From assembly GCA_017431945.1 (NCBI GenBank), contig JAFRJZ010000005.1:14259-78258 (forward strand): a DNA stretch of 64,000 bases, read 5' to 3'. A program made the translations under genes and the position numbers. This DNA is from Candidatus Saccharimonadota bacterium. Lineage in GTDB: Bacteria; Patescibacteriota; Saccharimonadia; Saccharimonadales; Saccharimonadaceae. Of this stretch, positions 26,848 through 63,284 are shown one piece after another (position 1 is the stretch's first letter; the number at the start of each line of letters is the position of its first letter). The notes under the pieces were generated by a model that had not been told where the DNA came from, did not search any database, and was given only the letters and a program-made list of their open reading frames with translations.

Positions 26848-26850
26848 AAA

Positions 26851-40811: not shown

Positions 40812-40926
40812 GCACTTTTGTTCGTGGACTTGAAACGAAAAAATCTCATACACTGGTAAACGGCAGGAATATAGATTTTTTCGTTTCAAATCTGACTTAA
40901 CAAACTACTCACAAAAGTGCTTATTT
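40807..40926. repeat. Nested palindromic repeat, copy A (~120 nt), starting at the murE stop codon
   Basis: Outer inverted repeat: aaataagcacttttgt / acaaaagtgcttattt. Inner inverted repeat: cttgaaacgaaaaaatct / agattttttcgtttcaa. The core ...tttcaaatctgacttaacaaa is shared with copies at 62496 and 63124. Confidence 0.8.
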
Positions 40927-44030: not shown

Positions 44031-44107
44031 GTGCCCGTAGCTCAGCTGGATAGAGCGTTGGCTTGCGGAGCCAAAGGTCGTAGGTTCGAATCCTGTCGGG
44101 CATACCA
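44031..44107 (+). tRNA. tRNA-Arg (anticodon GCG); CCA encoded
   Basis: Manual fold: acceptor gtgcccg/cgggcat (G1-U72 wobble), D-arm gctc-agctggata-gagc, anticodon stem ttggc/gccaa with loop ttGCGga, and T-arm gtagg-ttcgaat-cctgt (two G-U pairs). Confidence 0.8.
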
Positions 44108-45694
44108 AAGTTTAAAATCGGGACTTTTGTCCTCATCTGACCTCTTTAAATCGCAGGTTCTACCCACCGTCAAATCTTCATTTGCCTTGGCGGTGGTTTT
44201 TTGTATCGGAATCAGGTACTTATTAGGGGTAAACTGAATGGTTCTACCCGAAAGTTTTAAGTTTTTGCCCAGGGCTTTCATGACATATTGTTTTTCCTCC
44301 AGGGTGCCATTGTCAAATAAGCCTTTAGCCTTATTGGCAAACAATAATACATCATTAATGATTCGCTTCCAATCTTTCGCTACAGTTTGTATGTTGGCTA
44401 ATTGCTGATTAACGTCGGCTATTTCCGCCTTTATTTTTTCTGCGTCCATATTAAACTCTTCGTCGCTAATCATGTCATCACACCGCATTCTGCGCAAATT
44501 GGCAAGACGTATTTCACGCTTTTTCAGTTGCTTATTCAGATTTATTATCTTGCCATCTTGTTTTGAGGCTTCCAGCTCCTCTTCCTCGCATAAAGCCTCT
44601 ACAGCCAAACGGTAAAAGTCGTCGTCGATTGTATATTTAAGAAGCTCGTCTTGCACTTGCGTTATCAAATCTTCTTCCCTTACGAAGATATTTCTTTGCG
44701 GGCATTTAAATTTTTTACATTTTCCGCTGCAGTGACAATACGTAAACACGCCCTCATTACCATTTTTGTATTTTTTCGTTTTTCTTTCCGTAACCACGGC
44801 AAAACCGCATTCGGCGCAAGTCAATGTTCCTCTGAAAACAAAAGGGTACAGTTCAGATTTTGGTCTAGTAACCCGCTCCTTTTTACGTAGTAACTCCTGA
44901 GCTCTATCAAATTCCTCCTTTGTAATCATTCTTGGGTGCTTGCCATCGTGCAAGACGCCTTTCCAACGAAACTTACCATAATAATATGGATTCTGAAGCA
45001 TACTTTGAACGCCAGTATAACTCAATGCTTTTCCACCAGATTGAAGCCGTTGGTGTGTCTTAAGATGTAATGTTTTATCGGCATACCTTGTCAATTCTGC
45101 AACCGTAGTATTACCATCCAAGAATTTGTCCCAGACCATCCTCACCTTTTCCCAGGTTTCAGGGTCTTCCACGATAGTTTTCATATCACGATTATTCAGG
45201 TAGCCAATCGGAGCTGGCATTGGCTGCCAACCACGTTCCGCTTTTCCGCCTAAACCCCTTCTAACGTCCTGCATCAATCTTTTTCTAAATTCGGCACTCA
45301 TACTCCCCTCAACGTCAAGTGCAAGACCATCTTCTTCGTAATAGTCCTTGCCGTTCGTCAATATGAGCAACAACTTTTTATCATCCATCAGTTGATGTAT
45401 ATACCCAGATTCTTGCGGGTTTCTGCTGAGCCTATTGAACTCCCAAGCTATAATACCCTGCACTTTCCCATCTTCTATCATCTTTATCATCTTATTAAAT
45501 TCTTCCCTAGCCCCTGGATGTCCAGCAGACTTGGACTCTTTAAAAATGGCTACAATCTCTAATCCCTCTTGCGCAGCTCGTGTTTTGGCATATTTCAGTT
45601 GGTCGTCTAGCGATTGTACTTGTCGTTCAGATGATTCCATACTTTTACGTGCGTATATGGCGTATTTTATCTTTCTTTTGTCTATTTTTTCCAT
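44042..45694 (-). CDS. Large serine recombinase (integrase)
   Basis: N-terminal resolvase domain [15 protein letters not shown]...RLSRN, a recombinase domain and a zinc ribbon (CAECG...CHCSGKC), then a coiled-coil. SD aggagg. The last ~22 codons (...[19 protein letters not shown]) are encoded antisense to tRNA-Arg. Confidence 0.85.
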
Positions 45695-45777
45695 TTTTAC
45701 CTCCTAGAGGAACATTTGACTTTTTATGATAACATTGTATAACAATTAAGCCAAAATGTCCCTCCGATTTTTAATTA

Positions 45778-45915
45778 TTATTGATAAATCTTTTTTATTA
45801 AATGTGCTAACTCATACAATTCCCGCTTGGCTACCTCGTATTCGATATCTTTGCCAAACTTAGTTTTGTATAGTCCTCGAAATCTACCGACCAAATCTTG
45901 CGAATACTCTACCAT
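45778..45915 (-). CDS. Possible small ORF (45 aa) upstream of the integrase
   Basis: My translation is MVEYSQDLVGRFRGLYKTKFGKDIEYEVAKRELYELAHLIKKIYQ. A weak SD (aggaa) is present. It is below the track size cutoff and no homology was recognised. Confidence 0.25.
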   Translation of the reverse strand: MVEYSQDLVGRFRGLYKTKFGKDIEYEVAKRELYELAHLIKKIYQ

Positions 45916-46119
45916 CTTCGTTCCTACTTCTTCCCAATTTATGAATAACCCACTATAGTATCTAAAACTAATATGATAACCTAAACTATCAATTAACCTA
46001 TAACTATGTATACAACCTATATTTCCTATTAAAAGAATCTATAAGTATATAGTTATAATCTATAATATATATAGATATAATCTAGTTAATCTATAGCGAG
46101 TTATAAAAGTACAAATTTT

Positions 46120-46590
46120 TTAGAAGCCAGCCTCCGCTAAAGCATTCTTGATGTCGGTGCTATCGTCTAAAAACTCGTCTGGCGATTCCTGACTGTTTAT
46201 GGAATCGGTATTTTTGCGGTTTTCAGCGCATTTCTCGCGCGACCCGAACAAGTTGTCGATATCGACGACAAAAGCCCTGCCATACTCGTGCAAACGGCCA
46301 GTAGAGCTATAAAACTCGTAGGCTGAATGACACGCTTTTTGAATTGCCTCAACCATCTTATTATCTTTTGGATGAGCAAACTCTATAAAAGATTTATACT
46401 CACCGCTTCGGCTATCCCGGCGTGACGGCGGAAATGCCACCATCCTTTCAGGATTTCCGTACGTATTTGTCACTACATAGGAATTTATATTGAATAAATT
46501 TCCAATAGCCACGTTGGCAAAAGCCTTCTTGGCAGTCATTCCGTCAGTGACGGCATATATTTTTGCCTTTATTTCAATCTTGGCGCTCAT
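46120..46590 (-). CDS. SpoVG-like nucleic-acid-binding protein
   Basis: ...AKKAFANVAIGNLFNINSYVV...MVAFPPSRRDSRSGEYKSFIEFAHPKDNKMVEAIQKAC parallels the SpoVG core (...[21 protein letters not shown]...). Confidence 0.55.
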   Translation of the reverse strand: MSAKIEIKAKIYAVTDGMTAKKAFANVAIGNLFNINSYVVTNTYGNPERMVAFPPSRRDSRSGEYKSFIEFAHPKDNKMVEAIQKACHSAYEFYSSTGRLHEYGRAFVVDIDNLFGSREKCAENRKNTDSINSQESPDEFLDDSTDIKNALAEAGF

Positions 46591-46853
46591 TTTAGACCCT
46601 CCAAGATTTCGCTTTTTATTGCATTAATTTTACTAATCAATGCCGTTTTTTGTGCTTCTAAATTCGTCGCATCATTAAAATCGACGACAAAATCTTTTAG
46701 TTCCGTCCTGACACGATAGTCGGATAAATCACTTATCGCCATTTCAAGCGTCGGGTAATGTCCAATCGGTGTCCATTGACTACCTTTTGGTTTTAAAACT
46801 TTATATTCTTGCTCGGACGAAACAATCCGATATTTTTTAATAAAGACTTCCAT
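46587..46853 (-). CDS. Hypothetical protein (88 aa)
   Basis: 4-nt overlap with the SpoVG-like gene. No family recognised. Confidence 0.45.
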   Translation of the reverse strand: MEVFIKKYRIVSSEQEYKVLKPKGSQWTPIGHYPTLEMAISDLSDYRVRTELKDFVVDFNDATNLEAQKTALISKINAIKSEILEGLK

Positions 46854-47233
46854 GTCTTTATTTCCTTTCTTAGCCCTCGAAGTGTCTTTGTCGTTTCTTC
46901 GATTTACAAGGAATTCAAAGAAGGAATTACTAATATTGATGTTTTACTCGTGCCCCCCAAGAAACCGAAATTCCCACTGCAACGGGCAAAAACTCTCCTT
47001 CCAAAAGAAGAACTCTTGTATGTTGCAGTGGGTTGTGAAAAACACTATTGTGTATCTACAAATTGTTTTTGTAAATAAGTTGCTTCCACATATGGGTTTC
47101 GGTCCCATTTCTTAATGGATTAATACTATTGTAATACACTTTTACTGGGATTTCAAGGGGGGTAAGAACAGGGGTAGAACAAAAAATCTTTTACAAAATT
47201 ACGTATTTCTTCGTTCATTTTCGGTTAAAAAAA

Positions 47234-47242
47234 TGGTATAAT
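47234..47242 (+). promoter_or_regulatory. Extended -10 promoter (TGgTATAAT) of the Type III RM operon
   Basis: tgg-tataat. The predicted TSS at ~47249 coincides with the first base of the 5' UTR hairpin. Confidence 0.5.
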
Positions 47243-47248
47243 TAGAAT

Positions 47249-47333
47249 GCTAAACTATAGTCAAAATCATTATCTCTATTCGAGGTAAGTATGCGGCCAT
47301 TTGCCGTTCTCGAATAGAGGACTATAGTTTAGC
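47249..47333 (+). promoter_or_regulatory. 85-nt nested hairpin in the mod 5' UTR
   Basis: gctaaactatagtc (47249-47262) pairs with gactatagtttagc (47320-47333). ctctattcgag (47274-47284) pairs with ctcgaatagag (47309-47319). The 10-mer gctaaactat recurs at 47399-47408, overlapping the mod ATG. Confidence 0.5.
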
Positions 47334-47406
47334 GACTTGGCAGATGGTCGCTTCTTTTGTGTATAAAATCATAGTGGCGTGCCAGATGTCGGAAAGTTGC
47401 TAAACT

Positions 47407-49125
47407 ATGGAAAATAAGTCGCTAAATGAATACTCAAAAGAAGAATTGATAAAGATAATCAACTCGCTGAAAAAGCAAAAGAAATTTGGGCTTGTATGGG
47501 AAGACAAGCCAGAAAAAGTCGCCATTGAATGCGAGCAGAAACTTCCAGTTTTAAAAGAAGTTGAGGAAAAGACGATAAATGGAGCCAACAGCTCTGCCCC
47601 GACAAATATCATCATCGAGGGCGACAATTATCATACCCTTTCGGTCCTAAACTACACCCACGCCGGCAAAATCGACGTAATCTATATCGACCCACCATAT
47701 AACACCGGTAATAAAGACTTTATCTACAACGACAGGTTTATAGATAAGGAAGATTCTTTCCGCCATAGCAAATGGCTTTCTTTTATGGCTAAAAGGCTAT
47801 CATTAGCAAAAAATTTGCTATCGCCAAAAGGGGTTATATTTATTTCGATAGACGACAATGAACAAGCGAACCTACAATTGCTTTGCAATAGTATATTTGG
47901 CGAAGACTGCAGAGTAGCAAATATGATTTGGCGAAGAAAAACTGGTGCGTCCGACGCTAATGGCTTGGCGACAATCACTGAGCACATACTTGTTTACACA
48001 AGAAACAGTGATAAGAGTACGTGGAGTACCTTTTTTAGAGGGAATAGTGATTCTTATGACAGAAATCGGTATCGTTTGTCTGATGAGTATAAAAATGAAC
48101 GAGGCAATTATTACACAGACAGTTTAGACAGGGGCGGTCTCAGATATTCCGATTCGCTTAATTACCCAATAGAATGCCCTGATGGCACTAAAACATACCC
48201 AAATGGTCGCTTATCTTTCGCCAACGACGGTTGGACCTGGAAATGGGGACAAGAAAAAGTTAAGTGGGGGATAGAAAACGGTTTTATTGTATTTAAAAAA
48301 TCGAAAAACAAACCATCTGGTTGGACGGTACAGTACAAGAATTATATGTTTGTAGATAATAATTGTAATCACATTGAGCGAGCCGCCCCATTCAAAAATC
48401 TAATACTTGATATCTTAAACACAGACGGCGCAATGGAACAAAAAGCTATTTTTGGCAAAAAAGTTTTTAATAATCCTAAACCAGTGAAACTAGTCAAATT
48501 TTTAACATATCTCGTAAAAGAAAACAATATAGTCCTAGACTTCTTCGCTGGCTCGGGTACTACTGGTCAAGCCGTGATGGAGCTCAACCAAGAAGATGGC
48601 GGCAACCGTCAATTTATTCTTTGTACCAACAACGAAAACCAAATTGCCGAGGAAGTTACCTACCCGCGCATAAAAACTGTTGTTACTGGTACTCGCCCAG
48701 ATGGAACTAAATACTCCGATGGCATACCTGCCAATGTTCGCTACTTTAAAACTGATTTTGTCGAGAAAGACGACACCCTGGACAAACTTCGCCGTAAACT
48801 GTCGCCTGCTTGCGAAGATATGATTCGGATTCGTGAGGGGGCATACGAAAAACTAATTGATGACGATATGTTAAAGGTCTATAAGAACTCCCATGGTCTA
48901 ACCGCTATCGTATATGACCGTTTTGAGCTAGAAGAACATCTAGCGAAAATTGAAGAACTGGAAACCGATTCACCCGTCAATCTTTACGTGTTCTCCTACA
49001 CCAAACACGACAGGCTAGATGAAATCGACAAACCCCTAAAGCATACTTACATTAGCCAACCAATTCCCGAGGGAGTACTGGAAATCTACAAAAGAATTTT
49101 TAACCAAAAAGGAGGTAACCGGTGA
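47407..49125 (+). CDS. mod: Type III restriction-modification methyltransferase (Mod; N6-adenine/N4-cytosine beta-class)
   Basis: Motif IV VIYIDPPYNTG precedes motif I FFAGSGTTGQAV (beta-class order). There is a variable middle region (putative TRD). Overlaps res (GTGA). Confidence 0.85.
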   Translation: MENKSLNEYSKEELIKIINSLKKQKKFGLVWEDKPEKVAIECEQKLPVLKEVEEKTINGANSSAPTNIIIEGDNYHTLSVLNYTHAGKIDVIYIDPPYNTGNKDFIYNDRFIDKEDSFRHSKWLSFMAKRLSLAKNLLSPKGVIFISIDDNEQANLQLLCNSIFGEDCRVANMIWRRKTGASDANGLATITEHILVYTRNSDKSTWSTFFRGNSDSYDRNRYRLSDEYKNERGNYYTDSLDRGGLRYSDSLNYPIECPDGTKTYPNGRLSFANDGWTWKWGQEKVKWGIENGFIVFKKSKNKPSGWTVQYKNYMFVDNNCNHIERAAPFKNLILDILNTDGAMEQKAIFGKKVFNNPKPVKLVKFLTYLVKENNIVLDFFAGSGTTGQAVMELNQEDGGNRQFILCTNNENQIAEEVTYPRIKTVVTGTRPDGTKYSDGIPANVRYFKTDFVEKDDTLDKLRRKLSPACEDMIRIREGAYEKLIDDDMLKVYKNSHGLTAIVYDRFELEEHLAKIEELETDSPVNLYVFSYTKHDRLDEIDKPLKHTYISQPIPEGVLEIYKRIFNQKGGNR

Positions 49126-51551
49126 ATCTAGTTCAATATCAATCCGAAGCAGTAGAAAAACTGGTGCAAGGGTTTAAAGAATTGACTTTGGCTGGCAATT
49201 CAAACGCCACTATAATACTAAAATCCCCCACAGGCTCAGGCAAGACCGTAATGGTGGCGGCAATGCTAGACCAACTCCGTCAGGAAAATCTACCTAGCGA
49301 ATTCGTTTATATTTGGGCTAGTATGGGCGATTTAGCCCACCAGAGCTATGATAAGCTAAACAACCACTATCTCGCCGACAGCGAGTACAATATGCTAGAA
49401 ATTAGCGATATTGGTTCGGAACCATTACCCGCCAATACAATTCTGTTTTGCAACTGGGAAAAGATGTTTAAGACTGGTAAAGGTACAGACGATGACGGCA
49501 ACGAAATCGAAATCTTTGCCAATGTGTTTGTCCGAATCGGCGAAGATGGCAGAAACCTCCAGGAAGTCCTCGAAAAGACACGTGAGCAAGGTTTAAAAGT
49601 TGTACTAATAGTTGACGAAGCTCACCGAACATACCTTGGACCAAAATCGCAAAAACTGGTGGAAGAAGTCATTAAACCAAACCTCACTATTGAAGTTTCC
49701 GCCACACCAATCCTAAAACTCGAGCAGGGTTATCACGAAAACAATACTGGACGTTTTATCGAGGTCAAACTTCGCGACGTAATCGACAGCGGGCTTATAA
49801 AAAACAACACTATCATTAACAACGATATTGCTGGCGTAATCGACAAAAATTCTACTGACGATGTTGTACTTGCCGCCGCCCTGAGACAGCGTGATTATCT
49901 TGTGAGTGAATATAAAAAACTGGGCTCAAATGTAAACCCACTTGTACTGGTACAATTACCAACCGAATCTGCTGATAAAATGAGCGAAGCCGACCAAACC
50001 ACTCGTGAAAAAGTTGAAAAGTTTATGGAATCGCAAGGTATCACGTACGACAACGGAAAACTGGCGATTTGGGTTTCTGGCGACCACTACCCAGAAGATG
50101 TAAAAGAAGTTACGCCTAAAAACGATTCGGAAATTGAAGTTTTGATTTTCAAACAGGCGATTGCTACTGGTTGGGATTGTCCTAGAGCTTCAATACTTGT
50201 AATGCTTCGTGATATAAAATCGGTTGTATTCGAGATTCAGACCGTGGGACGCATTCTACGTATGCCCGAACTAAAACACTATGAAAATTCCGCCTTAAAT
50301 ACCGCTTTTGTATATACAAATATCAACGATATGGCTTTGCGTGAAGACGAGGATACGAGAACATTCTTCAAGACCCACACTAGCCATAGAGCCAAAGACT
50401 TTTCCGATAATTTCGTCTGGTCGAACGTCTATCGTAAGCGGATAGTCGGCTCACGCCACCGTTTGAATAGGAATTTTAGACGTATATTCTTCCCCCTGAT
50501 GAATGAGTATTTTTCCATCAAACAAGATGACGACAAGGAAACCCGTGTCGCCAAGCTCGACGACAAACTGGAAATCTATGCCGACGAACTAGCAATTCCA
50601 ATTCTGTCGGACATCAGTTTTGAGCATTTAGATTCGGTGGACAAAACAATTCTAGAAAGTGCCAACCAAGTGAAATTGACTGCCGATAAACCTTACATAG
50701 AGCGAATCTATAATCTATTTCTAAAGTCGGCTTCTTCGCCATACGCACCGCACGATTCTAGTCGTATTCTAAAGGACGCACTCTATAAGTGGTTTTCCGA
50801 TAATGGCTTTGATGATGAAGCCGAGGTCCAAAGAATTATCGCCTGCTCTAAAGTCAATCAAGATGTTCTAAATGAAGTAATTGACGCTGCCAAAGAGAAA
50901 TTCGCCGAAACGATGGACAAAGAAACCGAACTAGCCTATACGACATTTTCAATTCCTAAGTCTCAAGAATTTGGTGACGGCTATGAAATGTATGGAAGCA
51001 AGAAACAGGTTATGGAACCCTATTATCACCCAATCAAAATGTGGACTACCGAAGAAAAGTTTGAAAAGAAACTGGACGAATCTGAAAGTGTGGATTGGTG
51101 GTTTCGCAATGGCATCAACCAACCGAAGTATTTCGGCACACCATATCTCAAACTCAATAAGGACGGTATTGAAGAAGAAGCCATCTTTTACCCTGACTAC
51201 ATTGTAAAGTTTAAGGACGGCACCTACGGCGTATTTGACACTAAATCAGGCGACACTACCAGACCAGGGACCACACTTGGTGGCTCCGTGGACGAAAAAG
51301 CCAACGGCTTCCAATCCTATTTACGACAATATGATTTTATCGCTAAAATATGCAAAGAACGTTGCGGTATTGAACCAACCGACGGCAAATGCATATGGGG
51401 CGGACTAGTAAAAGTTGTGGACGAAAACCACTTTGAGTTGCAAGCCGATGCCATCACTCACGAAATGGCGCTTGCGAGAATGACAGGCAAAGACATAGAA
51501 ATACCAGAAGTAAATTACGACCCCAATGAGTGGAACAAACTGGTAATTTAA
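49122..51551 (+). CDS. res: Type III restriction enzyme Res subunit (SF2 helicase plus C-terminal nuclease)
   Basis: Walker A KSPTGSGKTV, DEAH box VDEAHR, and motif VI-like QTVGRILR. The C-terminal PDYIV...GVFDTKSG fits a PD-(D/E)xK nuclease. Confidence 0.85.
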   Translation: MNLVQYQSEAVEKLVQGFKELTLAGNSNATIILKSPTGSGKTVMVAAMLDQLRQENLPSEFVYIWASMGDLAHQSYDKLNNHYLADSEYNMLEISDIGSEPLPANTILFCNWEKMFKTGKGTDDDGNEIEIFANVFVRIGEDGRNLQEVLEKTREQGLKVVLIVDEAHRTYLGPKSQKLVEEVIKPNLTIEVSATPILKLEQGYHENNTGRFIEVKLRDVIDSGLIKNNTIINNDIAGVIDKNSTDDVVLAAALRQRDYLVSEYKKLGSNVNPLVLVQLPTESADKMSEADQTTREKVEKFMESQGITYDNGKLAIWVSGDHYPEDVKEVTPKNDSEIEVLIFKQAIATGWDCPRASILVMLRDIKSVVFEIQTVGRILRMPELKHYENSALNTAFVYTNINDMALREDEDTRTFFKTHTSHRAKDFSDNFVWSNVYRKRIVGSRHRLNRNFRRIFFPLMNEYFSIKQDDDKETRVAKLDDKLEIYADELAIPILSDISFEHLDSVDKTILESANQVKLTADKPYIERIYNLFLKSASSPYAPHDSSRILKDALYKWFSDNGFDDEAEVQRIIACSKVNQDVLNEVIDAAKEKFAETMDKETELAYTTFSIPKSQEFGDGYEMYGSKKQVMEPYYHPIKMWTTEEKFEKKLDESESVDWWFRNGINQPKYFGTPYLKLNKDGIEEEAIFYPDYIVKFKDGTYGVFDTKSGDTTRPGTTLGGSVDEKANGFQSYLRQYDFIAKICKERCGIEPTDGKCIWGGLVKVVDENHFELQADAITHEMALARMTGKDIEIPEVNYDPNEWNKLVI

Positions 51552-51586
51552 ATAATTTAAGGTATCATAGCAGAAAGGAATAATCT

Positions 51587-51976
51587 ATGGACAAAACCAA
51601 CAAAAACCTAACCGAGAAAATCGCAAAGTATCTAGAAATACGTCAAGCTGAACTAGAACAGTATATCGAGGACTTCAACCGCCAAACCACCGAAGACATA
51701 GAAACAGGTGCTTTTCTAGGTGGTGGCAACCAAAAGTTTAACCCCTCCGACCCAATAGTTCGTAAAGCCGTTGAAATCTGTATAAGTAAAGGTAAGTTTT
51801 CGTCGGCTATTCTGCAAACTTATTTAAGTAAACGGCACGGGTATATCGCTGGTCTTGCCATCTGGCTTGAGGAAATGGGCGTTATCGGTCCAATGAACGG
51901 AAACAAGCCACGAGATTTGCTGATAAGTTCAATGGAAGAATTCGATAAAAAAACGGCTAATGTTTCGGGAGAATAA
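51587..51976 (+). CDS. Standalone FtsK-gamma-like winged-helix protein
   Basis: DPIVRKAVEICISKGKFSSAILQTYLSKRHGYIAGLAIWLEEMGVIGPMNGNKPRDLL parallels the FtsK gamma domain (DPLYDEAV...ASIS.LQR.L.IGYNRAARIIE.ME..GVV...NG.REVL). Confidence 0.6.
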   Translation: MDKTNKNLTEKIAKYLEIRQAELEQYIEDFNRQTTEDIETGAFLGGGNQKFNPSDPIVRKAVEICISKGKFSSAILQTYLSKRHGYIAGLAIWLEEMGVIGPMNGNKPRDLLISSMEEFDKKTANVSGE

Positions 51977-51977
51977 G

Positions 51978-52544
51978 ATGGGCAATACTTACGAACAAGA
52001 CCTCAAGAAAGCCGCAGAAATACTGACATCCCAAGCCGACAAGGGCGACACAGGAAAAGCGCTCTGGGCGAAAATTAAGCCTAGTTTGGAATGTAGCGAT
52101 ATTGAAATTACGCAAATTGTCAACGACCTAGCGAATCTCGGCATAATTATCGTCCTACACAATGATAGCTATGAAATAGCCGTATCAAAAAATGAGCTAG
52201 ATAAAGTCTGGGATTCATATTTATTTAAACGTCTAATTTCCATTCGCGAAAAGGAAATTGAACTTGGCATATTTGATGCCGATAAATCCATAAACTTCTT
52301 TAGAACTTTTAGCCCAGACAACCAGGACGTTCGCAAGGCAGTTGAGGTCTGCGTTAATGCAAAAAAGTTTTCTACGGCTTTAATAATGTCTCACATTGGC
52401 AAAGGACACGCCTGGACTAATGCGCTGGTAAACTGGCTTGAACAGATAGGCGTCGTCAGCCCACTTGACGACAAATTACACCGTAAACTTTTGATTACCT
52501 CAATGGAAGAATTTGACAAGAAAGCAGCCGAAGCATTGACATAA
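51978..52544 (+). CDS. Second FtsK-gamma-like winged-helix protein (longer N-terminus)
   Basis: The C-terminus is DVRKAVEVCVNAKKFSTALIMSHIGKGHAWTNALVNWLEQIGVVSPLDDKLHRKLL. The start is set at MGNTYEQ (51978), 1 nt after the upstream stop. Confidence 0.6.
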   Translation: MGNTYEQDLKKAAEILTSQADKGDTGKALWAKIKPSLECSDIEITQIVNDLANLGIIIVLHNDSYEIAVSKNELDKVWDSYLFKRLISIREKEIELGIFDADKSINFFRTFSPDNQDVRKAVEVCVNAKKFSTALIMSHIGKGHAWTNALVNWLEQIGVVSPLDDKLHRKLLITSMEEFDKKAAEALT

Positions 52545-52633
52545 TCAAACAACTAGACAATTTTTACTAATATCTTCTGTGCTTTTTCTCTGCTCAGAGA
52601 AACTTTTACCCTGTTGTATTTTCCATCTAAAAA

Positions 52634-52642
52634 TGGTAAAAT
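52634..52642 (+). promoter_or_regulatory. Extended -10 promoter (TGgTAAAAT), 6 nt upstream of the antitoxin ATG
   Basis: tgg-taaaat, then gtgctt, then the ATG at 52649. Confidence 0.5.
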
Positions 52643-52648
52643 GTGCTT

Positions 52649-52819
52649 ATGACAACCAAAGAAAAAAGAATGTATGCAAATATAGAAAAATGGCGCAACT
52701 TATCTAAAACCGAGCGTCGTTCCATTTTGCGTGCCTCAAATGTCAAACAGGTTGCGAGTTCAATGGCAATGGAAGGTGAGCCAGTTTCCGACTTATGGCT
52801 ACAGAAGAACGCCCGTTAG
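52649..52819 (+). CDS. VbhA-like antitoxin of the Fic toxin (56 aa)
   Basis: Below the track cutoff. My translation is MTTKEKRMYANIEKWRNLSKTERRSILRASNVKQVASSMAMEGEPVSDLWLQKNAR. It contains the Fic-inhibitory motif S-x-x-x-E-G (SMAMEG). It overlaps the fic start by 25 nt. Confidence 0.6.
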   Translation: MTTKEKRMYANIEKWRNLSKTERRSILRASNVKQVASSMAMEGEPVSDLWLQKNAR

Positions 52820-53391
52820 AAAGCACCACTAGAACCTTTGATACTACCAAAGGCAAACTTACTTATGCCGAACTTTCAGATTTAATTGCTCCGAAATTAC
52901 TACAATTACTAGACGACATTACAGACGGTAAGTTCATAAATCAACCTTTTGATGAGGAACTAATCAGGAACTTCCATTTTCATATTATCGGTGATATTAT
53001 GCCTGAAATTGCAGGCAAATGGCGCACCGTGCCAGTTCAGGTTGGCAACTGGTTTCCACCCGAGCCATACGAAATACCAGTTAAAATACACGAATACGTT
53101 GCTAATATGCAGGCTCGCCTTAACAATTCCGCTACGCTAGACCTGCAAATTGAAGCCTTAGCCTATGCCGAGGGCGAATTCTTACATATACATCCATTCC
53201 AAGATTTCAATGGTCGCACCATTCGTGCCATTCTATCTGAACTCTTAATGCGATTTGACTTGCCACTAGTAGATACTGCCGTAAAACGTGAAACTCCCGA
53301 ATTCAAAAAGTACCAAAACGCCCTTGCCGAATACGACAACGGACGAATCGCCAGCTTAATTGAATTCTGGCAAGACCGCCTCAGCGAGTAA
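52795..53391 (+). CDS. fic: Fic-domain protein (AMPylase-type toxin)
   Basis: The Fic motif HIHPFQDFNGRTIR compares with the consensus HxFx(D/E)GNGRxxR, with one deviation (F for G). Confidence 0.8.
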   Translation: MATEERPLESTTRTFDTTKGKLTYAELSDLIAPKLLQLLDDITDGKFINQPFDEELIRNFHFHIIGDIMPEIAGKWRTVPVQVGNWFPPEPYEIPVKIHEYVANMQARLNNSATLDLQIEALAYAEGEFLHIHPFQDFNGRTIRAILSELLMRFDLPLVDTAVKRETPEFKKYQNALAEYDNGRIASLIEFWQDRLSE

Positions 53392-53436
53392 GACCGTCAG
53401 ATTTACTTTTGCCAAAGTTCGTGATATAATTTAACT

Positions 53437-53566
53437 AGATTTCCAGAGGTTTTAACAACTAAAGGCGAAATCTACATTTACGCCATTAAGCAAGTCTTCC
53501 TTTATTTGGGTTACTACTTGTTTAACTTCGTTATACCATAAAAAATCCCCTTCGGGGCTTTTTTAT
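53437..53566 (+). ncRNA. Candidate ~130-nt non-coding transcript (promoter to terminator, no ORF)
   Basis: A TGaTATAAT promoter lies at 53422-53430. There is no ATG before the stem-loop/T-run aaaaaatcccc-ttc-ggggctttttt (53540-53566). Confidence 0.3.
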
Positions 53567-53640
53567 AGCATGCTTGGATCGTCCCAGGAGGCAAATGGGC
53601 ATATTTTTTTGAAACCCCTTTTTGGGTTTTTATTGATGAG

Positions 53641-53975
53641 CTAGTGGCAGCACCAGCACTAATACCTTTGGCGCTCTCTCCTTGGCCTATGGTGGTTCTG
53701 GTTGGAATCAGACTGATATGGCGGTTAATCAACGTTTTCGTGCTTATCCGAATAATTTCCTCTCTTCCGGCTACGTTAACGGTTCCTCGGTGAGCAGCCG
53801 TGGCTCGATCGGGTACTGGTGGGCTAAGTCGGCGTACTCGGCTCCGAACGCGTACCGCTTGAACCTGGCTTACAATGGCAACGTCTACCCGTCCGGCTAC
53901 GACCGTAAGTGGCTCGGATTCACGGCGCGCTGCCTTGCTGGCTCGTAGCTGAGGGTTGGCTGGGGTGGGGGTAAG
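53641..53975 (+). repeat. Hypervariable repeat copy 1 (DGR variable-repeat-like 3' gene cassette)
   Basis: It includes track ORF 53682..53948 (...GFTARCLAGS*). The variable core is 53772-53915. The invariant GC-rich end is ggattcacggcgcgctgccttgctggctcgtag, followed by a G-rich tail. In-frame tga tga lies immediately upstream of the homology. Confidence 0.75.
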
Positions 53976-53996
53976 AGGGAATAAAATTCTTAAAGC

Positions 53997-55022
53997 TTAG
54001 CGGCCAGTAGAATCGGCTTTAGCGTGCTCGACCATTAATTTGATGGAATTAGATGCGTTAATAACTTCGAGTTTGATATTTGGGTGAGAAATGTTAAAGA
54101 CCCGAAAGATTTCGTCGGCAAAGGCTTGACCGATAACGTTGATACCAGCGAAATCAAAGATGATTTTTTTGTATTTTTCGAGACCGGCGAGAAGCTTCTT
54201 GGCCTGAGAGCGAGAAATCCAAATGTCGCCTTCTTCGAAGAGCCTAACGGGGATGATGGTAGTGTCGATGGTAGTATGTTGGTGGTCGAGTGAAAATTCG
54301 CGAAAGAGTTCTTGTAGAGATTTGGTGGTGTGAACATTGATTTCAAAATATACTTCGGTGCCGATTATCGGCTCGGTGAGTTCAGAGATGGTGTAATCGT
54401 CTAAACTGTTGGCGATGGCGAGTTTTAAGTCGTAACTTTTAAGTTCGAAGTAATCAGCTACCTTGGATGTCCAGAAGATGCCTTCACCAGAGTGCCAGCG
54501 TGGTGCGGTGGTGAATTTGCCTTTGACAAGCTCGAGGATGGCGTCGGTTTCGGAGTTTAAGTGCTTTTTAGTCATGATATTCCTAAAAACGCCGATGCCG
54601 CTATCTTTGACAATGAATTTGAGGGTGTCGTCTTCGAGCCAGATTTTGACATAGCCGAACCCAGATCGAGAGTGGTCGATGGCGTTATTAAGCATCTCGG
54701 TGAAGGCGAAATATAAAATGTTGGTGGCGTTCTCGGAAATGTTATCTAGAAAATTGGTGCTTCTGATAAGTTTTTTCCAGATTTCGTCTTCGTGGAGACC
54801 GGGTAGCTTGAGGTTTTCTTCGAGGGCGATGATTTTATCTGAGACGAAATAAATTACTTCTCGGCCGTGCTTTTCTTTACGTACTTTGCCTTCGGCGATG
54901 AGAGTAGCGAGGTTTTTGCTCACGTATGTACGATTACCGACAGGGGCTTTTTGGCTAATTTGTAGCGCTGAGAGGCCGGGATTATTCGAAAGGATTTCGT
55001 AGATTTTGTCTTTATAGGTCAT
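53997..55022 (-). CDS. HTH + histidine-kinase-like ATPase (HATPase_c) + STAS-like (DUF4325-type) protein
   Basis: N-terminal wHTH (IYEILSNNPGLSALQISQKA...), N-box TEMLNNAIDHS, G1 box VKDSGIGV, and a C-terminal ...IIFDFAGINVIGQAFADEIFRVF typical of DUF4325. Confidence 0.65.
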   Translation of the reverse strand: MTYKDKIYEILSNNPGLSALQISQKAPVGNRTYVSKNLATLIAEGKVRKEKHGREVIYFVSDKIIALEENLKLPGLHEDEIWKKLIRSTNFLDNISENATNILYFAFTEMLNNAIDHSRSGFGYVKIWLEDDTLKFIVKDSGIGVFRNIMTKKHLNSETDAILELVKGKFTTAPRWHSGEGIFWTSKVADYFELKSYDLKLAIANSLDDYTISELTEPIIGTEVYFEINVHTTKSLQELFREFSLDHQHTTIDTTIIPVRLFEEGDIWISRSQAKKLLAGLEKYKKIIFDFAGINVIGQAFADEIFRVFNISHPNIKLEVINASNSIKLMVEHAKADSTGR

Positions 55023-55090
55023 GTATACATATTAACAAATATGTATAGTTTTGTCAAGGATATGTATAGATTATGTATAGTTTATGTGAG
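55021..55090. promoter_or_regulatory. Direct-repeat array (atgtatag x3 plus two variants) in the divergent region upstream of the HTH-HATPase gene
   Basis: atgtatag at 55041, 55062 and 55073. atgtatac at 55021 overlaps the start codon. tatgtgag lies at 55083. Confidence 0.4.
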
Positions 55091-55107
55091 TTTTTAGTAA
55101 ATGGGCA

Positions 55108-55435
55108 TAGCGGCACCACCAGCACCAACTCCTTTGGCGCTCTCTCCTTGGCCTATGGTGGTTCTGGTTGGAATCAGACTGATATGGCGGTTAATCAACG
55201 TTTCCGTGCTTATCCTAATAATTTCCTCTTTTCCGGCTACGTTAACGGTTCCTCGGTGACCAACCGTGGCTCGCTCGGGGACTGGTGGGCTAAGTCGGCG
55301 TACTCGGCTCCGAACGCGTACAACTTGTACCTGGGCGGCACTGGCAACGTCGGCCCGTCCGGCGGCAACCATAAGTGGGTCGGATTCACGGCGCGCTGCC
55401 TTGCTGGCTCGTAGCTGAGGGGGTGGCTGGGGGTT
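55108..55435 (+). repeat. Hypervariable repeat copy 2
   Basis: It lies within track ORF 55073..55414. The variable core is 55238-55381. The conserved flanks match copies 1 and 3. Confidence 0.75.
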
Positions 55436-55484
55436 GAATAGAAAAGGTCTTGTTATATTTTGGCAATTGTGATATAATAAGGGT

Positions 55485-55558
55485 AGAGGAAGTCAGCCCG
55501 AAAAGTGTCCGTATGGACGCCTGCTCGAAAGAGATAGGGCTGATTTCATTTTATTTTT
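55485..55558 (+). ncRNA. Candidate ~75-nt structured transcript
   Basis: A TGaTATAAT promoter lies at 55470-55478 with no plus-strand gene downstream. The stem tcagccc (55493-55499) / gggctga (55537-55543) encloses an inner gtcc-gtat-ggac hairpin and is followed by tttcattttattttt. Confidence 0.3.
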
Positions 55559-56183
55559 GGTTTATGCGCTTTATCTTAATGATTTTATTCTTAATAATGT
55601 CAATATAGACTTTGGCATCTGTTTTGTCTGTCATTGAACGGTTAATGGAACCAGCGATTAGGTCGGCTAGCTGAATTAGATTATCTTCTGTTGAGTCTTC
55701 GAATTTAATTGTGATTTTCTTCACGCCATTTCTATTGATTTCGCGACGAAGATAGGTCGCGGTTTTGCGCATGTTTTGTTTGCTTGAGCGCCCGTCAATC
55801 TCAATCTTGGCTTCTTCTATTGGGATTATGTCTAAGAGCTCTTTAATCGTCCAGTCGTAGAGTTTCTGCTTATCGATGATGGCGGATGTCTGGCGAAAGC
55901 TGGCTTTATCAACATAAGTGGCATAGATCTGAAAGTCATATTCAGAAATGATTTTTAGAAGGTCTGCGATAATATCTTTGCGTATTTTGGTAAACTTGAA
56001 TTCGTAATCGTTGCGCCACCCAAGGGACTCGCGATATTTTGTAATGCGCTCTGATAACGACATTGCTATTTCGGGATCAATAAAAAGTGCGGCCGCTATG
56101 ACAAAATTGCTACTAGAGGCTTTTTTAAACCCTGGATCCCCTGAATCGTCTATGAATATCAGCTGTTTGCTCATTGTTAGCAA
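55551..56183 (-). CDS. DUF3800-family protein
   Basis: The N-terminus LIFIDDSGDPGF and the C-terminal ...LIQLADLIAG... are the DUF3800 hallmarks. Confidence 0.7.
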   Translation of the reverse strand: MLTMSKQLIFIDDSGDPGFKKASSSNFVIAAALFIDPEIAMSLSERITKYRESLGWRNDYEFKFTKIRKDIIADLLKIISEYDFQIYATYVDKASFRQTSAIIDKQKLYDWTIKELLDIIPIEEAKIEIDGRSSKQNMRKTATYLRREINRNGVKKITIKFEDSTEDNLIQLADLIAGSINRSMTDKTDAKVYIDIIKNKIIKIKRINQK

Positions 56184-56213
56184 TTATAGCATATGTATTT
56201 ATTAAAAATACTA

Positions 56214-56540
56214 TAGTGGCACCACCAGCACCAACTCCTTTGGCGCTCTCTCCTTGGCCTATGGTGGTTCTGGTTGGAGTCAGACTGATATGGCGGTTAA
56301 TCAACGTTTTCGTGCTTATCCTAATAATTTCCTCTTTTCCGGCAGCGTTAACGGGTCCTCGGTGCTCAACCGTGGCTCGCGCGGGCGCTGGTGGGCTAAG
56401 TTGGCACTCTCAGCTCCGAACGCTTACGACTTGGGCCTGGACGGCGATGGCTACGTCGGCCCGTCCCTCAACACCCGTAAGTGGTACGGATTCACGGCGC
56501 GCTGCCTTGCTGGCTCGTAGCTGAGGGGTGGGTGGAGTGA
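56214..56540 (+). repeat. Hypervariable repeat copy 3
   Basis: It includes track ORF 56254..56520. The variable core is 56344-56487. An in-frame taa lies 4 codons upstream of the homology boundary. Confidence 0.75.
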
Positions 56541-56627
56541 GATAAAACTAATAAAGTTTTAGCTAAATAGTAGAATGTAAATATTAGGTTGTGCTATAAT
56601 TACTGCAAAGCATTTAAAGGAGATATT

Positions 56628-58595
56628 ATGGAGAATGACTCAACAAGTAGTGCCCGACATGAAGAACAACCTGAAGACCTACCATCATCCACTCTTTCGG
56701 ATTTACCAGATTACGAAGAACACATAGCAGAATTAAAACGAGGCTCCAAAGTCCTTTCAAGTACCAGCTATGAAAGTCGTCACAAAAGTGTAGAATCTAG
56801 TTTCAATAAAGCTCGTAAGCAAGGCGAGAAGCTCCCAGGTAAGAATAACGAACGTCGTAATTATAGCTACCTTAGTCGTCTAGAACAATTAATCGCTAAA
56901 CATGGTAATCCTATAGAAAAGAAACTTTGGAAGGAATCTAGCCGCAGATTAATCATACAGGAAGATGAGATTCCAGAAAGCTATTGGCGATCCCAAGAGC
57001 AAATACTGCGAGACGAGGGGCACGGTGATTATGGCATAGATAGAGTTGCCAAGACGGCAGAAATACAAAGATTACAAGAAGAGTCTTTAGCATCTTGGGC
57101 TAATTATCTCGGCAGCGAGAACTCTCCTTATCCCACATGGTTTAAGGTTTATGCCTGGGATGGTATGAGCAAGATGGGCGTCTTTGACAAGGATAAACAA
57201 CAATTTGCAAAGCGTGATAAACACACCGTAGCTCCTTATCCTAAGCTGAATCCAGCTGTACTAGCTAAAACTTACGGCCTAGTTAAAGACTTCTATGATC
57301 AACCAGACAATGATAGACATCATCAAGAAAGATCTGCAGAAGACGCTGAGCTAGAAGCTCTCGTTAAGTCTGGTAATTTCAATAAACTCTATTCCAAGAT
57401 CCTATTAAGTGAAAAAGCTATCCCCAAGACCCCAGAAAGGACCGAGGATGTTCATGGTGAATGGGTAGAATACTTACCAGGTGAAGAAGAACATCTCGCT
57501 AGTGCTGCCGAAGGTACCCCTTGGTGTATCGCAGATTCTGGTACTGGACGTAACTATCTAAAATATGGCAATTATGGAGGCTATTATGAATATAATGGTC
57601 CTGGAAACAACAGTGCCAGCAATCAGGCTAAATTCATTCTCTTCCATTTACAAAACCCAGAAACCAATACTTTATCCGAATCAGCCTGTGCTTCAATTCG
57701 TCTAGGCACCGATGGCAGAGTCGCCGAAATCTCTGGGCTAAATGAAGGACAAGCTCTAGAAGATTCGCTAGTACCAATCGTAGAAGAAAAAGTACGCTCA
57801 CTACCTGGTGGCGAAGATTTTCTTGAGGCCTTCGCAGATAAGAAACAGTTAATAGCCTTAGATCGTAAGATGCAAAACAACGAAGACCTAACAAAAGAAG
57901 AATTAGAATTTATCTATGAAATAAATCGTCCCATTAAAACTCTTGATACCTATAACAAAAGCGACCCTAGAATTCCTGAACTACGCCAAAAATATGGAAT
58001 TGGATATGCCCTAGACCATGGGGTTAATATTGATGGCCTTGTCTCGCAATTAGACTCCCATCAAATAGCCAAAAACCTAGACGCTCTCCTAGACCATGGA
58101 GCTAATATTGACAACCTTGTCTCGCAATTACTGCCCCATCAAATAGCCTTTAACCTAGACACCCTCCTAGACCATGGAGCAAATATTAATATTAACGACC
58201 TTGTCTCGCAATTACTGCCCCATCAAATAGCCAAAAACCTAGACGCTCTTCTAGACCATGGAGCTAATATTAATATTAACAACCTCATCTCTTATTATTT
58301 GGACTCATATGATATAGTCTATAACCTAGACACCCTCTTAGACCATGGGGCTAATATTGATGGCCTTGTCTCGCAATTAGGCCCCTATATGATAGCCAAG
58401 AACCTAGACGCTCTCCTAGACCATGGAGCTAATATTAACAACCTCATCTCTCGTTTGGACTCATATGGTATAGTCTATAACCTAGACACCCTCCTAGACC
58501 ACGGAGCAAATATTGATAACCTTGTTTCACGTTTAGACCCTGATGATGTACTCAAACATCGCGAAACCCTTATTAAACACGGAGCCAACATCTGA
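56628..58595 (+). CDS. Large hypothetical protein with a C-terminal array of 26-29-aa tandem repeats
   Basis: The start is set at MENDSTSS (SD aaaggag; TGcTATAAT promoter at 56592-56600). The last ~195 aa contain about 7.5 repeats of LLDHGANI(D/N)xLVSQLxxxxIAxNLDx. The N-terminal ~460 aa are unrecognised. Confidence 0.6.
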   Translation: MENDSTSSARHEEQPEDLPSSTLSDLPDYEEHIAELKRGSKVLSSTSYESRHKSVESSFNKARKQGEKLPGKNNERRNYSYLSRLEQLIAKHGNPIEKKLWKESSRRLIIQEDEIPESYWRSQEQILRDEGHGDYGIDRVAKTAEIQRLQEESLASWANYLGSENSPYPTWFKVYAWDGMSKMGVFDKDKQQFAKRDKHTVAPYPKLNPAVLAKTYGLVKDFYDQPDNDRHHQERSAEDAELEALVKSGNFNKLYSKILLSEKAIPKTPERTEDVHGEWVEYLPGEEEHLASAAEGTPWCIADSGTGRNYLKYGNYGGYYEYNGPGNNSASNQAKFILFHLQNPETNTLSESACASIRLGTDGRVAEISGLNEGQALEDSLVPIVEEKVRSLPGGEDFLEAFADKKQLIALDRKMQNNEDLTKEELEFIYEINRPIKTLDTYNKSDPRIPELRQKYGIGYALDHGVNIDGLVSQLDSHQIAKNLDALLDHGANIDNLVSQLLPHQIAFNLDTLLDHGANININDLVSQLLPHQIAKNLDALLDHGANININNLISYYLDSYDIVYNLDTLLDHGANIDGLVSQLGPYMIAKNLDALLDHGANINNLISRLDSYGIVYNLDTLLDHGANIDNLVSRLDPDDVLKHRETLIKHGANI

Positions 58596-58635
58596 CCTTA
58601 GATTCTCATTTTTAAACTATTTGCTGTAATATAGG

Positions 58636-58680
58636 CACGATTGCCGACAGGGGCTTTTTGACTAATTTGTAGGGCTGGTA
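58636..58680 (-). pseudogene. Remnant of a paralog of the HTH-HATPase gene (5' fragment only)
   Basis: acgattgccgacaggggctttttgactaatttgtagggctg is ~90% identical to 54930-54972 (acgattaccgacaggggctttttggctaatttgtagcgctg), the wHTH-coding part of 53997..55022. Confidence 0.6.
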
Positions 58681-58743
58681 TAGTTTAGGTTGTGGACTTG
58701 GCGAAAAAAGAGCACAAAATTTAAAATGTTGTATAATAAAGAT

Positions 58744-59121
58744 ATGAGCAGTATTTTTAGTAAAATCATTATGGGTGAAATTCCCTGTTATAAAATCTAT
58801 GAAGATGATAAGACCTTGGCGTTTTTGGACATTAACCCGGAGGTGATGGGGCATGTGCTGGTGGTGCCGAAAGTGGAGGTGGACAAGATTTATGACCTGA
58901 GTGACGAAGATTATCAGGCGCTGATGGCGACGGTGAAGAAGTTGGCGAAGCATATGGAGGAGGTGCTGGGTGCGCGAACGCTGATGAAGGTAGTGGGGAC
59001 GGATGTGCCGCATGCGCATGTGCACTTGACGCCACTAGATGAAAAATGGGAATATGGGAAGACTTTGAAGCCAACAGAAGCTGAAATGCAAGAAATGGTA
59101 GAGAAGCTGGCACTAAAATAG
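58744..59121 (+). CDS. HIT-family (histidine triad) hydrolase
   Basis: MSSIFSKIIMGEIPCYKIYEDDKTLAFLDINP... and the triad HAHVHLTP. The ATG at 58744 lies 6 nt after TATAAT (58732-58737). Confidence 0.85.
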   Translation: MSSIFSKIIMGEIPCYKIYEDDKTLAFLDINPEVMGHVLVVPKVEVDKIYDLSDEDYQALMATVKKLAKHMEEVLGARTLMKVVGTDVPHAHVHLTPLDEKWEYGKTLKPTEAEMQEMVEKLALK

Positions 59122-59260
59122 GTGTATTTCGCGAATTTTGGGGGATTAGAGCGATTTTTGGCATAAACATGAAAGGGTATAAAAAAGGGTAAAGGCCCGC
59201 GGTACATGAATTCGCGAGCCTTTTGAAAGGAGTGTGACTGTGGTATGATGTAGCTTAAAT

Positions 59261-63123: not shown

Positions 63124-63284
63124 TAAGAAGTAAATTAAACACTTTTTGTTCGTGACTTGAAATGAAAAAATGTCATACATTGGTAAACGAAGGTCGCGTC
63201 CCAAGGGGCGAACAAGAATATACATTTTTTCATTTCAAATCTGACTTAACAAATACTTACAAAAAGTGCTTAATTTACTTCTTA
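63124..63284. repeat. Nested palindromic repeat, copy C (~161 nt)
   Basis: 26-nt outer inverted repeat (1 mismatch): taagaagtaaattaaacactttttgt / acaaaaagtgcttaatttacttctta. The inner part is nearly identical to copy A, with an extra GC-rich insert (gtcgcgtcccaaggggcgaac). Confidence 0.8.

Follow-up and report, generated by a model that had tools for sequence, protein, structure and literature searches.

Diversity-generating retroelements (DGRs) are generally taken to act on an expressed gene where it stands: with every round of homing, the previous variant is overwritten and lost. Mtd of a Bordetella phage and TvpA of Treponema are DGR variable proteins with C-type-lectin/FISUMP folds. Silent-cassette conversion systems are another known strategy of diversification, with examples in Neisseria (pilS/pilE), Mycoplasma synoviae (the vlhA pseudogenes) and M. 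genitalium (MgPar), while polymorphic toxins have orphan C-terminal modules, the CdiA-CT and Rhs-CT orphans. The vls locus of Borrelia is a silent-cassette gene conversion system as well (PMC11499132). DGR variable repeats have also been reported far from their reverse transcriptase (RT), at a distance of more than 370 kb in Pseudogulbenkiania, and in Pelodictyon outside any open reading frame (ORF) (PMC3521204), and the Patescibacteria have a DGR clade of their own (PMC8144416). Here we analyzed a 64-kb segment of a Saccharibacteria chromosome (contig JAFRJZ010000005.1; hereafter the window, meaning this whole stretch), which carries three copies of a gene end, the cassettes c1, c2 and c3. 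Taken as a whole, the data are best explained if these cassettes are silent, truncated DGR target copies of the end of a surface-protein gene, written in trans and possibly serving as a store of variants, a reading to which we assign a probability of roughly 55%. An initial annotation of the window, made from its letters only, had interpreted the repeats in DGR terms, and this interpretation is partly supported by our results.

The repeats lie on the same (+) strand, measure 300-310 nucleotides (nt) and occupy positions 53642-53951, 55108-55417 and 56214-56523 of the window. We recovered all three of the same-orientation repeats that the initial annotation had listed, with pairwise identities of 86-91%, and found no fourth copy in the 64 kb. 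Their G+C content is 57-59%, compared with 42% for the window. Each cassette consists of a 5' arm, a variable core, an invariant end and a G-rich trailer:

53642 to 53975, + strand: cassette c1, with arm 53643-53771, core 53772-53915, invariant end 53916-53948 and G-rich trailer 53949-53975
55108 to 55435, + strand: cassette c2, with arm 55109-55237, core 55238-55381, invariant end 55382-55414 and a G-rich trailer
56214 to 56540, + strand: cassette c3, with arm 56215-56343, core 56344-56487, invariant end 56488-56520 and a G-rich trailer

In the alignment of c1-c3, the 129-nt arm shows 3-8 differences between copies (8 of 129 nt between c1 and c2) and the core of about 150 nt shows 19-35. The 33-nt 3' end, ggattcacggcgcgctgccttgctggctcgtag, contains the stop codon and is identical in c1, c2 and c3; both this shared GC-rich end and the G-rich tail behind it had been noted in the initial annotation. 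The GC-rich invariant element found at the 3' end of the variable core includes acggcgcgctgcc and is near-identical in the copies on three public metagenome contigs of close relatives (L010, L014 and L032). The trailer of c1 contains a canonical G-quadruplex (G4) motif.

A second family of FISUMP C-terminal fragments, of about 103 amino acids (aa), was observed at positions 607-879 of L010 (- strand), 51-362 of L035 and 275-586 of L036. Its members have GGAGG and TTG upstream and a NAC-type variable core of their own. They stand head-to-head or tail-to-tail with copies of the first family, and in L035 the fragment adjoins a tRNA gene.

We then analyzed how the variation is distributed, using for codons the reading frame that ends at the TAG of the invariant end. 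In the core, 23 codons differ among c1-c3, and 15 of them keep a fixed C at the third base and vary at bases 1 and 2 only; the earlier estimates had been about 20 and about 15. Variable repeats were compared only with one another, without a template, and a column was called A-bearing when any copy has A there. Among c1-c3, 25 of 38 A-bearing core columns are variable, compared with 13 of 115 other columns (p=2e-10), while the corresponding fractions in the 5' arm are 2/24 and 7/105 (p=0.67). When the cassettes of L010, L014 and L032 were added to c1-c3, giving six close copies, 39 of 47 A-bearing core columns were variable versus 7 of 106 others (p=3e-21), and in the arm 3 of 25 versus 7 of 104 (p=0.41). 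The claimed adenine-specific NNC variability is thus statistically strong and restricted to the core. The same column test was also significant for G and T, although far more weakly than for A, because variable columns naturally hold more kinds of base.

The shape of the variation follows the same division between core and arm. Variable core columns fall at codon positions 1, 2 and 3 in 20, 19 and 6 cases, A is the plurality base at 21 of 46 of them (27 with ties), and 23 of 45 have three or four states. The arm has ten variable columns, all of them two-state and six of them at codon position 3. At the 43 columns where a template A is inferred, A accounts for 50% of the states, and its share among invariant columns is 5% in the core versus 18% in the arm. 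None of the copies is the template, as had been noted before, since each retains A at only 19-25 of these 43 columns. A seventh copy, from another Saccharibacteria species (L011, the same sequence as L023), differs in the arm mostly at synonymous positions, and its core varies at the same codons as the other copies. The second cassette family (L010 minus strand, L035 and L036) displays the same pattern of variability.

We know of no other process that produces an adenine-directed AAC-to-NNC footprint. Judged by its pattern, the core variation is a DGR-type footprint, left by mutagenesis directed at the adenines of an AAC-rich template. The footprint on which the proposed DGR origin had been based therefore stands; because our searches found no cognate template or DGR reverse transcriptase, it is from this footprint that we infer DGR authorship.

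One could also imagine that no retroelement was involved and that point mutation with strong diversifying selection, or conversion between paralogues, made the core. The missing RT and template would fit such an origin, as would some core changes at non-adenine columns. The same applies to an ORF from Ca. Saccharibacteria (P0135, NCBI MBR5408769.1), which, like P0031, is built of four head-to-tail units comprising only the variable C-terminal FISUMP part. By their sequence, both resemble tandem arrays of silent cassettes, and the units of P0135 vary with residues that NNC codons cannot encode. We nevertheless regard an origin without a retroelement as very improbable, given that the variation is so tightly tied to A-bearing columns, that changes are restricted to the first two positions of codons whose C is fixed, that many columns have three or four states, and that the adjoining arm drifts normally.

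Next, we examined whether the cassettes could be expressed. In-frame stops were found 2 codons (c1), 14 codons (c2, TAG) and 4 codons (c3, TAA) upstream of the homology boundary, in line with the 5' truncation and the stops within 15 codons described earlier; in c1, two TGA codons lie in frame directly upstream. The copies have no start codon in common, and the variable repeats do not end an intact target ORF. The statement that a Shine-Dalgarno (SD) signal is lacking holds only in part. An AGGAGG-ATG pair does occur upstream of c1, and c2 has an ATG at 55073, 12 codons upstream, which opens a 113-aa ORF (P0001, identical in 12 contigs). The pair upstream of c1 was ruled out as a real start, its frame being closed by a TGA after five codons. 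In the database, the protein for c1 (P0003; window 53585-53645) has W where the window reads TGA, in an ORF that is closed under the standard bacterial code; its prediction evidently used a code that translates TGA as Trp. Terminator-like hairpins stand directly upstream of c1 (two of them) and of the cassette in L010. No promoter-like site was found on the + strand upstream of c2 or c3; upstream of c1 there is one (53402-53430), with a terminator hairpin intervening before the cassette. A full-length gene or an intact 5' gene part sharing the arms was present neither in the window nor in its 10-kb flanks. Thus, c1-c3 are probably silent copies of a gene end that lacks its 5' part.

To which protein does this gene end belong? 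The c1-c3 products matched no Pfam or NCBIfam model and did not reach the curated FISUMP threshold. A longer copy on L010 (P0002), which extends 32 residues further upstream than the window cassettes, aligned with positions 41-174 of the 176 positions of TIGR02145 (FISUMP), at 27.3 bits against a cutoff of 41.65. The C-terminal domains of two surface proteins of 596-660 aa, L030 and L031, are 41-47% identical to P0002; L031 passes both cutoffs (PF09603, 34.2 versus 33.9; TIGR02145, 57.4 versus 41.65), and L030 has no FISUMP match in Pfam. The partial, sub-threshold match of P0002 and the full match of its homologue L031 therefore indicate that the cassettes are domain fragments. On this homology, c1-c3 encode the C-terminal half of a C-type-lectin-like domain, FISUMP.

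When a profile was searched against 1.8 billion representative proteins, 1929 relatives were returned, mostly of 600-6000 aa and with several such domains each, and the relatives that we inspected end in ...GFSVRCLxxS. One protein of 296 aa (P0018), which has a complete domain with a PF09603 match, shares 77% identity with the L010 cassette across 143 residues. Consequently, communities of this kind contain a gene of the same variable-region family that encodes the full domain. P0002, L031 and P0018 thus uphold the C-type-lectin/FISUMP-like tail of the initial annotation, and L031 and P0018 are full-length homologues with a PF09603 match; in Saccharibacteria, the domain is found complete in large surface proteins. 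Structure prediction as a check for a C-type-lectin fold failed: AlphaFold2, run on an alignment of eight sequences, gave no confident fold (mean predicted local distance difference test score, pLDDT, of 31), and a profile search of PDB sequences yielded chance matches only. As in Mtd, TvpA and the FISUMP domain itself, the variable region is of AAC-rich design, lies at the very C-terminus and closes with the conserved G-F-x-x-R-C motif. In contrast to those proteins, the window copies comprise only the C-terminal half, score below the family threshold and have no predictable structure.

These results also bear on a different possibility, namely that the cassettes are complete small genes encoding miniature variable proteins of 88-116 aa that are themselves direct DGR targets. 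The ATG just upstream in c2 and L011, the GGAGG and TTG at the right spacing in the second family and the intact reading frames of all copies would agree with this. Open frames, however, are expected anyway, because NNC codons cannot give stops. Starts and leader peptides differ in every copy, stops lie 2-4 codons upstream of c1 and c3, the segment is only the C-terminal half of a domain, and AlphaFold2 gave no confident fold. We therefore find it improbable that the cassettes are genes in their own right.

The adenines that do not vary gave a further indication. In every one of the seven copies, five core columns remain A: those at the second base of codons K62, Y71 and N80 and at both A of K89. 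Overall, by contrast, A is retained in 50% of cases at inferred template-A positions. The probability that these five columns were kept by chance is about 0.5^35. The caveat about invariant adenines raised in the initial annotation was thus real, although one of its examples, the AAC of alignment codon 69 at window 53847 (N in SAPNAY), proved variable once more copies were included. It follows that the constant adenines were either protected from mutagenesis or that the cores were filtered by selection on the protein. We are not aware of any protection of template adenines in DGRs, and, as far as can be judged from the alignment, selection on the encoded protein best explains these columns. 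This suggests that the variable regions have at some time been exposed to selection within an expressed gene. Since selection is unlikely to act on a beheaded half-domain alone, past or continuing exchange with an expressed gene is indicated.

We also analyzed how the cassettes behave in variant contigs. In the window they are separated by genes on the opposite strand, and Pfam matches confirmed the assignments made for both intervening modules:

53997 to 55022, - strand: module 1, a gene with HTH, HATPase and DUF4325 (STAS-like) domains, between c1 and c2 (Pfam)
55489 to 56183, no single strand: module 2, between c2 and c3, consisting of a DUF3800-IX RNA and a DUF3800 gene
55489 to 55551, + strand: the DUF3800-IX RNA of module 2 (Rfam RF02968, 55.6 bits)
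55551 to 56183, - strand: the DUF3800 gene of module 2 (Pfam PF12686; PADLOC PDC-M04A)

In contig L012, the c2 leader is joined to the c3 core and the DUF3800 module is deleted, by recombination between c2 and c3. In contig L014, a new core stands between the flank that precedes c2 and the flank that follows c1, so that the flanks of module 1 are joined through a single cassette; this arrangement may represent a tandem duplication, an excised circle or a chimera. The protein P0160 corresponds to c2 with a patch of c1 at codons 41-58, that is, a patch conversion, and the same core start is found in different contexts in L036 and L010. The conserved arms of the cassettes recombine with each other, with deletion, patch conversion and possibly duplication or circle formation as the outcomes.

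This behavior resembles that of the pilS, vls, vlhA and MgPar systems. There, as in c1-c3, 5'-truncated copies lack a promoter and carry a variable core between conserved arms, segmental exchange occurs (here in P0160), and the users are small-genome, host-attached bacteria. A G4-forming run next to one copy, here c1, also has its counterpart at pilE. The systems differ in that the variation in those archives is ordinary divergence and not retroelement mutagenesis, and in that our searches of the window and its flanks revealed no expression site, nor did we observe transfer into such a site.

Our model brings these observations together. We hypothesize that the repeats are copies of the last ~100 codons of a Saccharibacteria surface-protein gene, comprising the C-terminal half of the FISUMP domain, the stop codon and the G-rich trailer, and that the variable region of this parent gene would have been written by a DGR. 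In this process, a template repeat located elsewhere in the genome would be copied into complementary DNA (cDNA), which would receive random bases wherever the template has an adenine, and this cDNA would replace the core, entering at the invariant end, which would have a role like that of the initiation of mutagenic homing (IMH) site. Homing would require only the 3' target site and homology, and for that reason truncated, unexpressed copies would be written too. The RT and template would be located more than 10 kb beyond the window, or would have been lost. In the least certain step of the model, recombination through the arms would trade variable segments with the full-length gene and the cassettes would form a store of already selected variants; exchange was observed only from cassette to cassette (P0160 and L012). 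A two-tier system of this kind, in which a DGR writes variants, silent beheaded cassettes keep the selected ones and gene conversion feeds them to an expressed FISUMP protein, is a tentative proposal that we consider rather doubtful as it stands. Its arrays may be interleaved with defence genes here and arranged head-to-tail in other genomes (P0135 and P0031).

Several results weigh against the cassettes being DGR targets written in trans. The window has no open frame with YxDD and no RVT domain in any ORF of at least 237 aa, and blastn with an all-A predicted template matched only the three cassettes; neither an RT nor a template had been found there in the initial annotation. We found no RT, be it as a YxDD frame or as an RVT domain, and no template repeat or further cassette in the 10 kb beyond each window end, which brings the portion of the genome inspected to about 84 kb. 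Exact scanning for a template-specific 24-mer gave nothing in viral or metagenome contigs. Viral contigs also gave nothing when scanned for the invariant end, the 5' arm and the end of the second family, or in a protein-guided scan, and the same was true of phage and plasmid records searched for cassette segments. c1-c3 are identical, or differ by one base, in a dozen other contigs from several sample series, which argues against current diversification. Five private changes in c3, at columns that otherwise never vary, are the behavior of a decaying copy and speak against continuing renewal. DNA folds of six copies showed no shared stem just 3' of the invariant end, where the Bordetella phage target has a hairpin or cruciform, and folding there was no better than that of shuffled sequence (z from -0.6 to +2.1). 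Finally, P0160 and L014 come from short contigs that could be assembly chimeras, and the P0018 gene sits on an unlinked metagenome contig of 1653 nt and not in this genome.

A degenerate version of the 24-mer, used on representative genomes, gave chance matches in high-GC genomes and one in a Saccharibacteria metagenome-assembled genome (MAG), L023. In addition, we considered and rejected the idea that the cassettes are retro-copies of the template itself, as the 22-25 adenine columns of the 5' arm are not variable.

From this evidence one might conclude, as the main alternative to our reading, that the cassettes are fossils, decaying pseudogene fragments of a former DGR target whose element has been lost, with frozen cores that are only accidental substrates of recombination. 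The failure of every search for RT and template, the invariance of the cassettes across many contigs, the non-adenine changes private to c3, the lack of a consistent start codon and the missing target-site hairpin would all be expected of such remnants. Nevertheless, the 33-nt end and the non-adenine core columns are almost unchanged although the arms of c1 and c2 differ at 8 of 129 nt, the divergence of the arm from that of another species is mainly synonymous, and strains carry different cores at similar positions (L014, L032 and L010). The searched 84 kb also cover only part of the genome, Saccharibacteria genomes being roughly 1 Mb in size, and a hairpin downstream of the IMH is not universal among DGRs. 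As for the invariance, the flanks of c1-c3 are equally clonal, which is why their sameness across samples says little about retroelement activity: it shows only an absence of rapid turnover. All in all, we consider decay after loss of the element possible, though it is clearly not what we expect.

Under the preferred reading, in which the cassettes were written in trans, the distance to the RT has precedents. Remote variable repeats are documented and the Patescibacteria have a DGR clade, and a trans-acting DGR elsewhere in this genome is therefore plausible, as far as comparison of sequences can suggest. Like the cassettes, the remote and multiple repeats of Pseudogulbenkiania and Pelodictyon lie far from the RT, occur as several copies differing only at adenine-derived positions and include one outside a recognizable ORF (PMC3521204). 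They differ from our locus, where every copy seen is beheaded at the same point, no RT or template could be linked, and the cassettes alternate with unrelated genes of the opposite strand within a defence island and recombine mutually.

This island has the following boundaries and entry genes:

44031 to 59200, no strand: variable island, the only part of the window with a flat cumulative GC skew, with Pfam, PADLOC and tRNA matches
44031 to 44107: tRNA-Arg gene
44042 to 45694, - strand: large serine recombinase gene, overlapping the end of the tRNA-Arg gene

The window as a whole is a segment of a Saccharibacteria chromosome, in which dnaA, dnaN and recF lie at 20-24 kb; NCBI records include the cassette protein cluster. 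The cassettes lie within the 15-kb stretch of flat GC skew that starts at the tRNA-Arg gene and the large serine recombinase. After the recombinase come a SpoVG-like gene, a type III methylase with its restriction enzyme, two FtsK-gamma paralogues and a Fic gene with a PDC-S04/SoFic-like match (window 44031-53400); a repeat protein and the cassettes are also part of the island. Upstream of Fic, strains differ in their gene content, strain L001 having other genes in place of the restriction system.

Such surroundings raise the question of whether integrating elements created the array. Islands inserting into the 3' part of the surface gene would each bring a replacement 3' end, serial insertions would leave orphan 3' ends with a common 5' boundary, each beside a cargo gene, and DGR writing would be secondary. 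A common boundary does exist: TAG[CT]GGCA marks the 5' limit of c1-c3 and of the copies in L011, L014, L032 and L036, in unrelated contexts. The cargo between the copies is accessory or defence-type, and the island has a serine recombinase adjoining a tRNA gene. L032 offers a related arrangement at 228-400, with a tRNA gene followed by a second copy of the tRNA 3' end (ttcccgcacgctccaccagaggataagaa), as at an integration site, and then, about 30 nt on, a cassette of the first family. Against this, no intact 5' gene part stands at the left end of the array, the intervening modules have no integrase, the 310-nt repeats far exceed the usual length of an attachment site, and the L010 copy has a different and longer 5' boundary. 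We therefore think it unlikely that insertions built the array. Splitting of a gene at this place by the serine recombinase of the island was ruled out, no 5' gene half being present in the window.

The array can also be compared with the CdiA-CT and Rhs-CT orphans. In both cases 5'-truncated gene ends form arrays with interleaved genes and a short homology arm for recombination with the main gene. The toxin tips, however, are unrelated domains paired with immunity genes on the same strand, whereas here all tips are one domain and differ only at template-adenine positions.

Several neighboring features were also observed. A promoter-like site (55450-55478) and a terminator-like stem belong to the DUF3800-IX RNA, which is convergent with the DUF3800 gene; the function of this RNA class is unknown (PMC5737381). 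Just upstream of c1, on the + strand at 53402-53570, a promoter-like TTTACT-17-TATAAT with a TG extension, similar to the promoter of the DUF3800-IX RNA, precedes a structured element of about 130 nt with an intrinsic-terminator hairpin at its end. This element has no Rfam match and a fold z-score of -3.2, and may represent an unannotated small RNA. The divergent region upstream of the HTH-HATPase-DUF4325 gene (55023-55100) contains four or five copies of ATGTATAG/ATGTATAC, and L014 has one more; these repeats look like candidate operator sites for the HTH protein. Downstream of c3, a + strand gene (56589-58595) encodes a 668-aa protein with no Pfam match and with C-terminal tandem units of 26 aa (78-nt period, LDxLLDHGANI, ankyrin-like), whose length across strains is 601, 655, 657 or 668 aa.

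Elsewhere in the window, a pair of neighboring intergenic repeats, each 63-65 nt long, occurs twice with a spacing of 22 kb, at 40798-40926 and 63125-63275, with 82-83% identity. A gene at 13453-15642 (- strand) encodes a 729-aa protein with four ricin-B lectin repeats. Beside the replication-origin genes, the - strand region 24102-27732 carries a TraG/VirB4-like ATPase gene (24102-25958) and a PrgI-family gene (26851-27732), with an uncharacterised ORF of 298 aa between them.

If silent copies are also written by a DGR, or capture selected variants, the view that DGRs diversify an expressed gene in place would change. A DGR-written archive of silent cassettes would, if true, be a new combination of two known diversification strategies, analogous to pilS or vls. 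Should the cassettes be relics only, they would show that DGR footprints persist far from a retroelement or without one, and that surveys requiring an RT beside the variable repeat miss them. In either case, the locus bears on how the targets of DGRs spread and decay, and on how episymbiotic Saccharibacteria adapt their attachment proteins to their hosts. If the cassettes do recombine with an expressed gene, a tiny genome would hold both a generator and a memory of binding-site variants.

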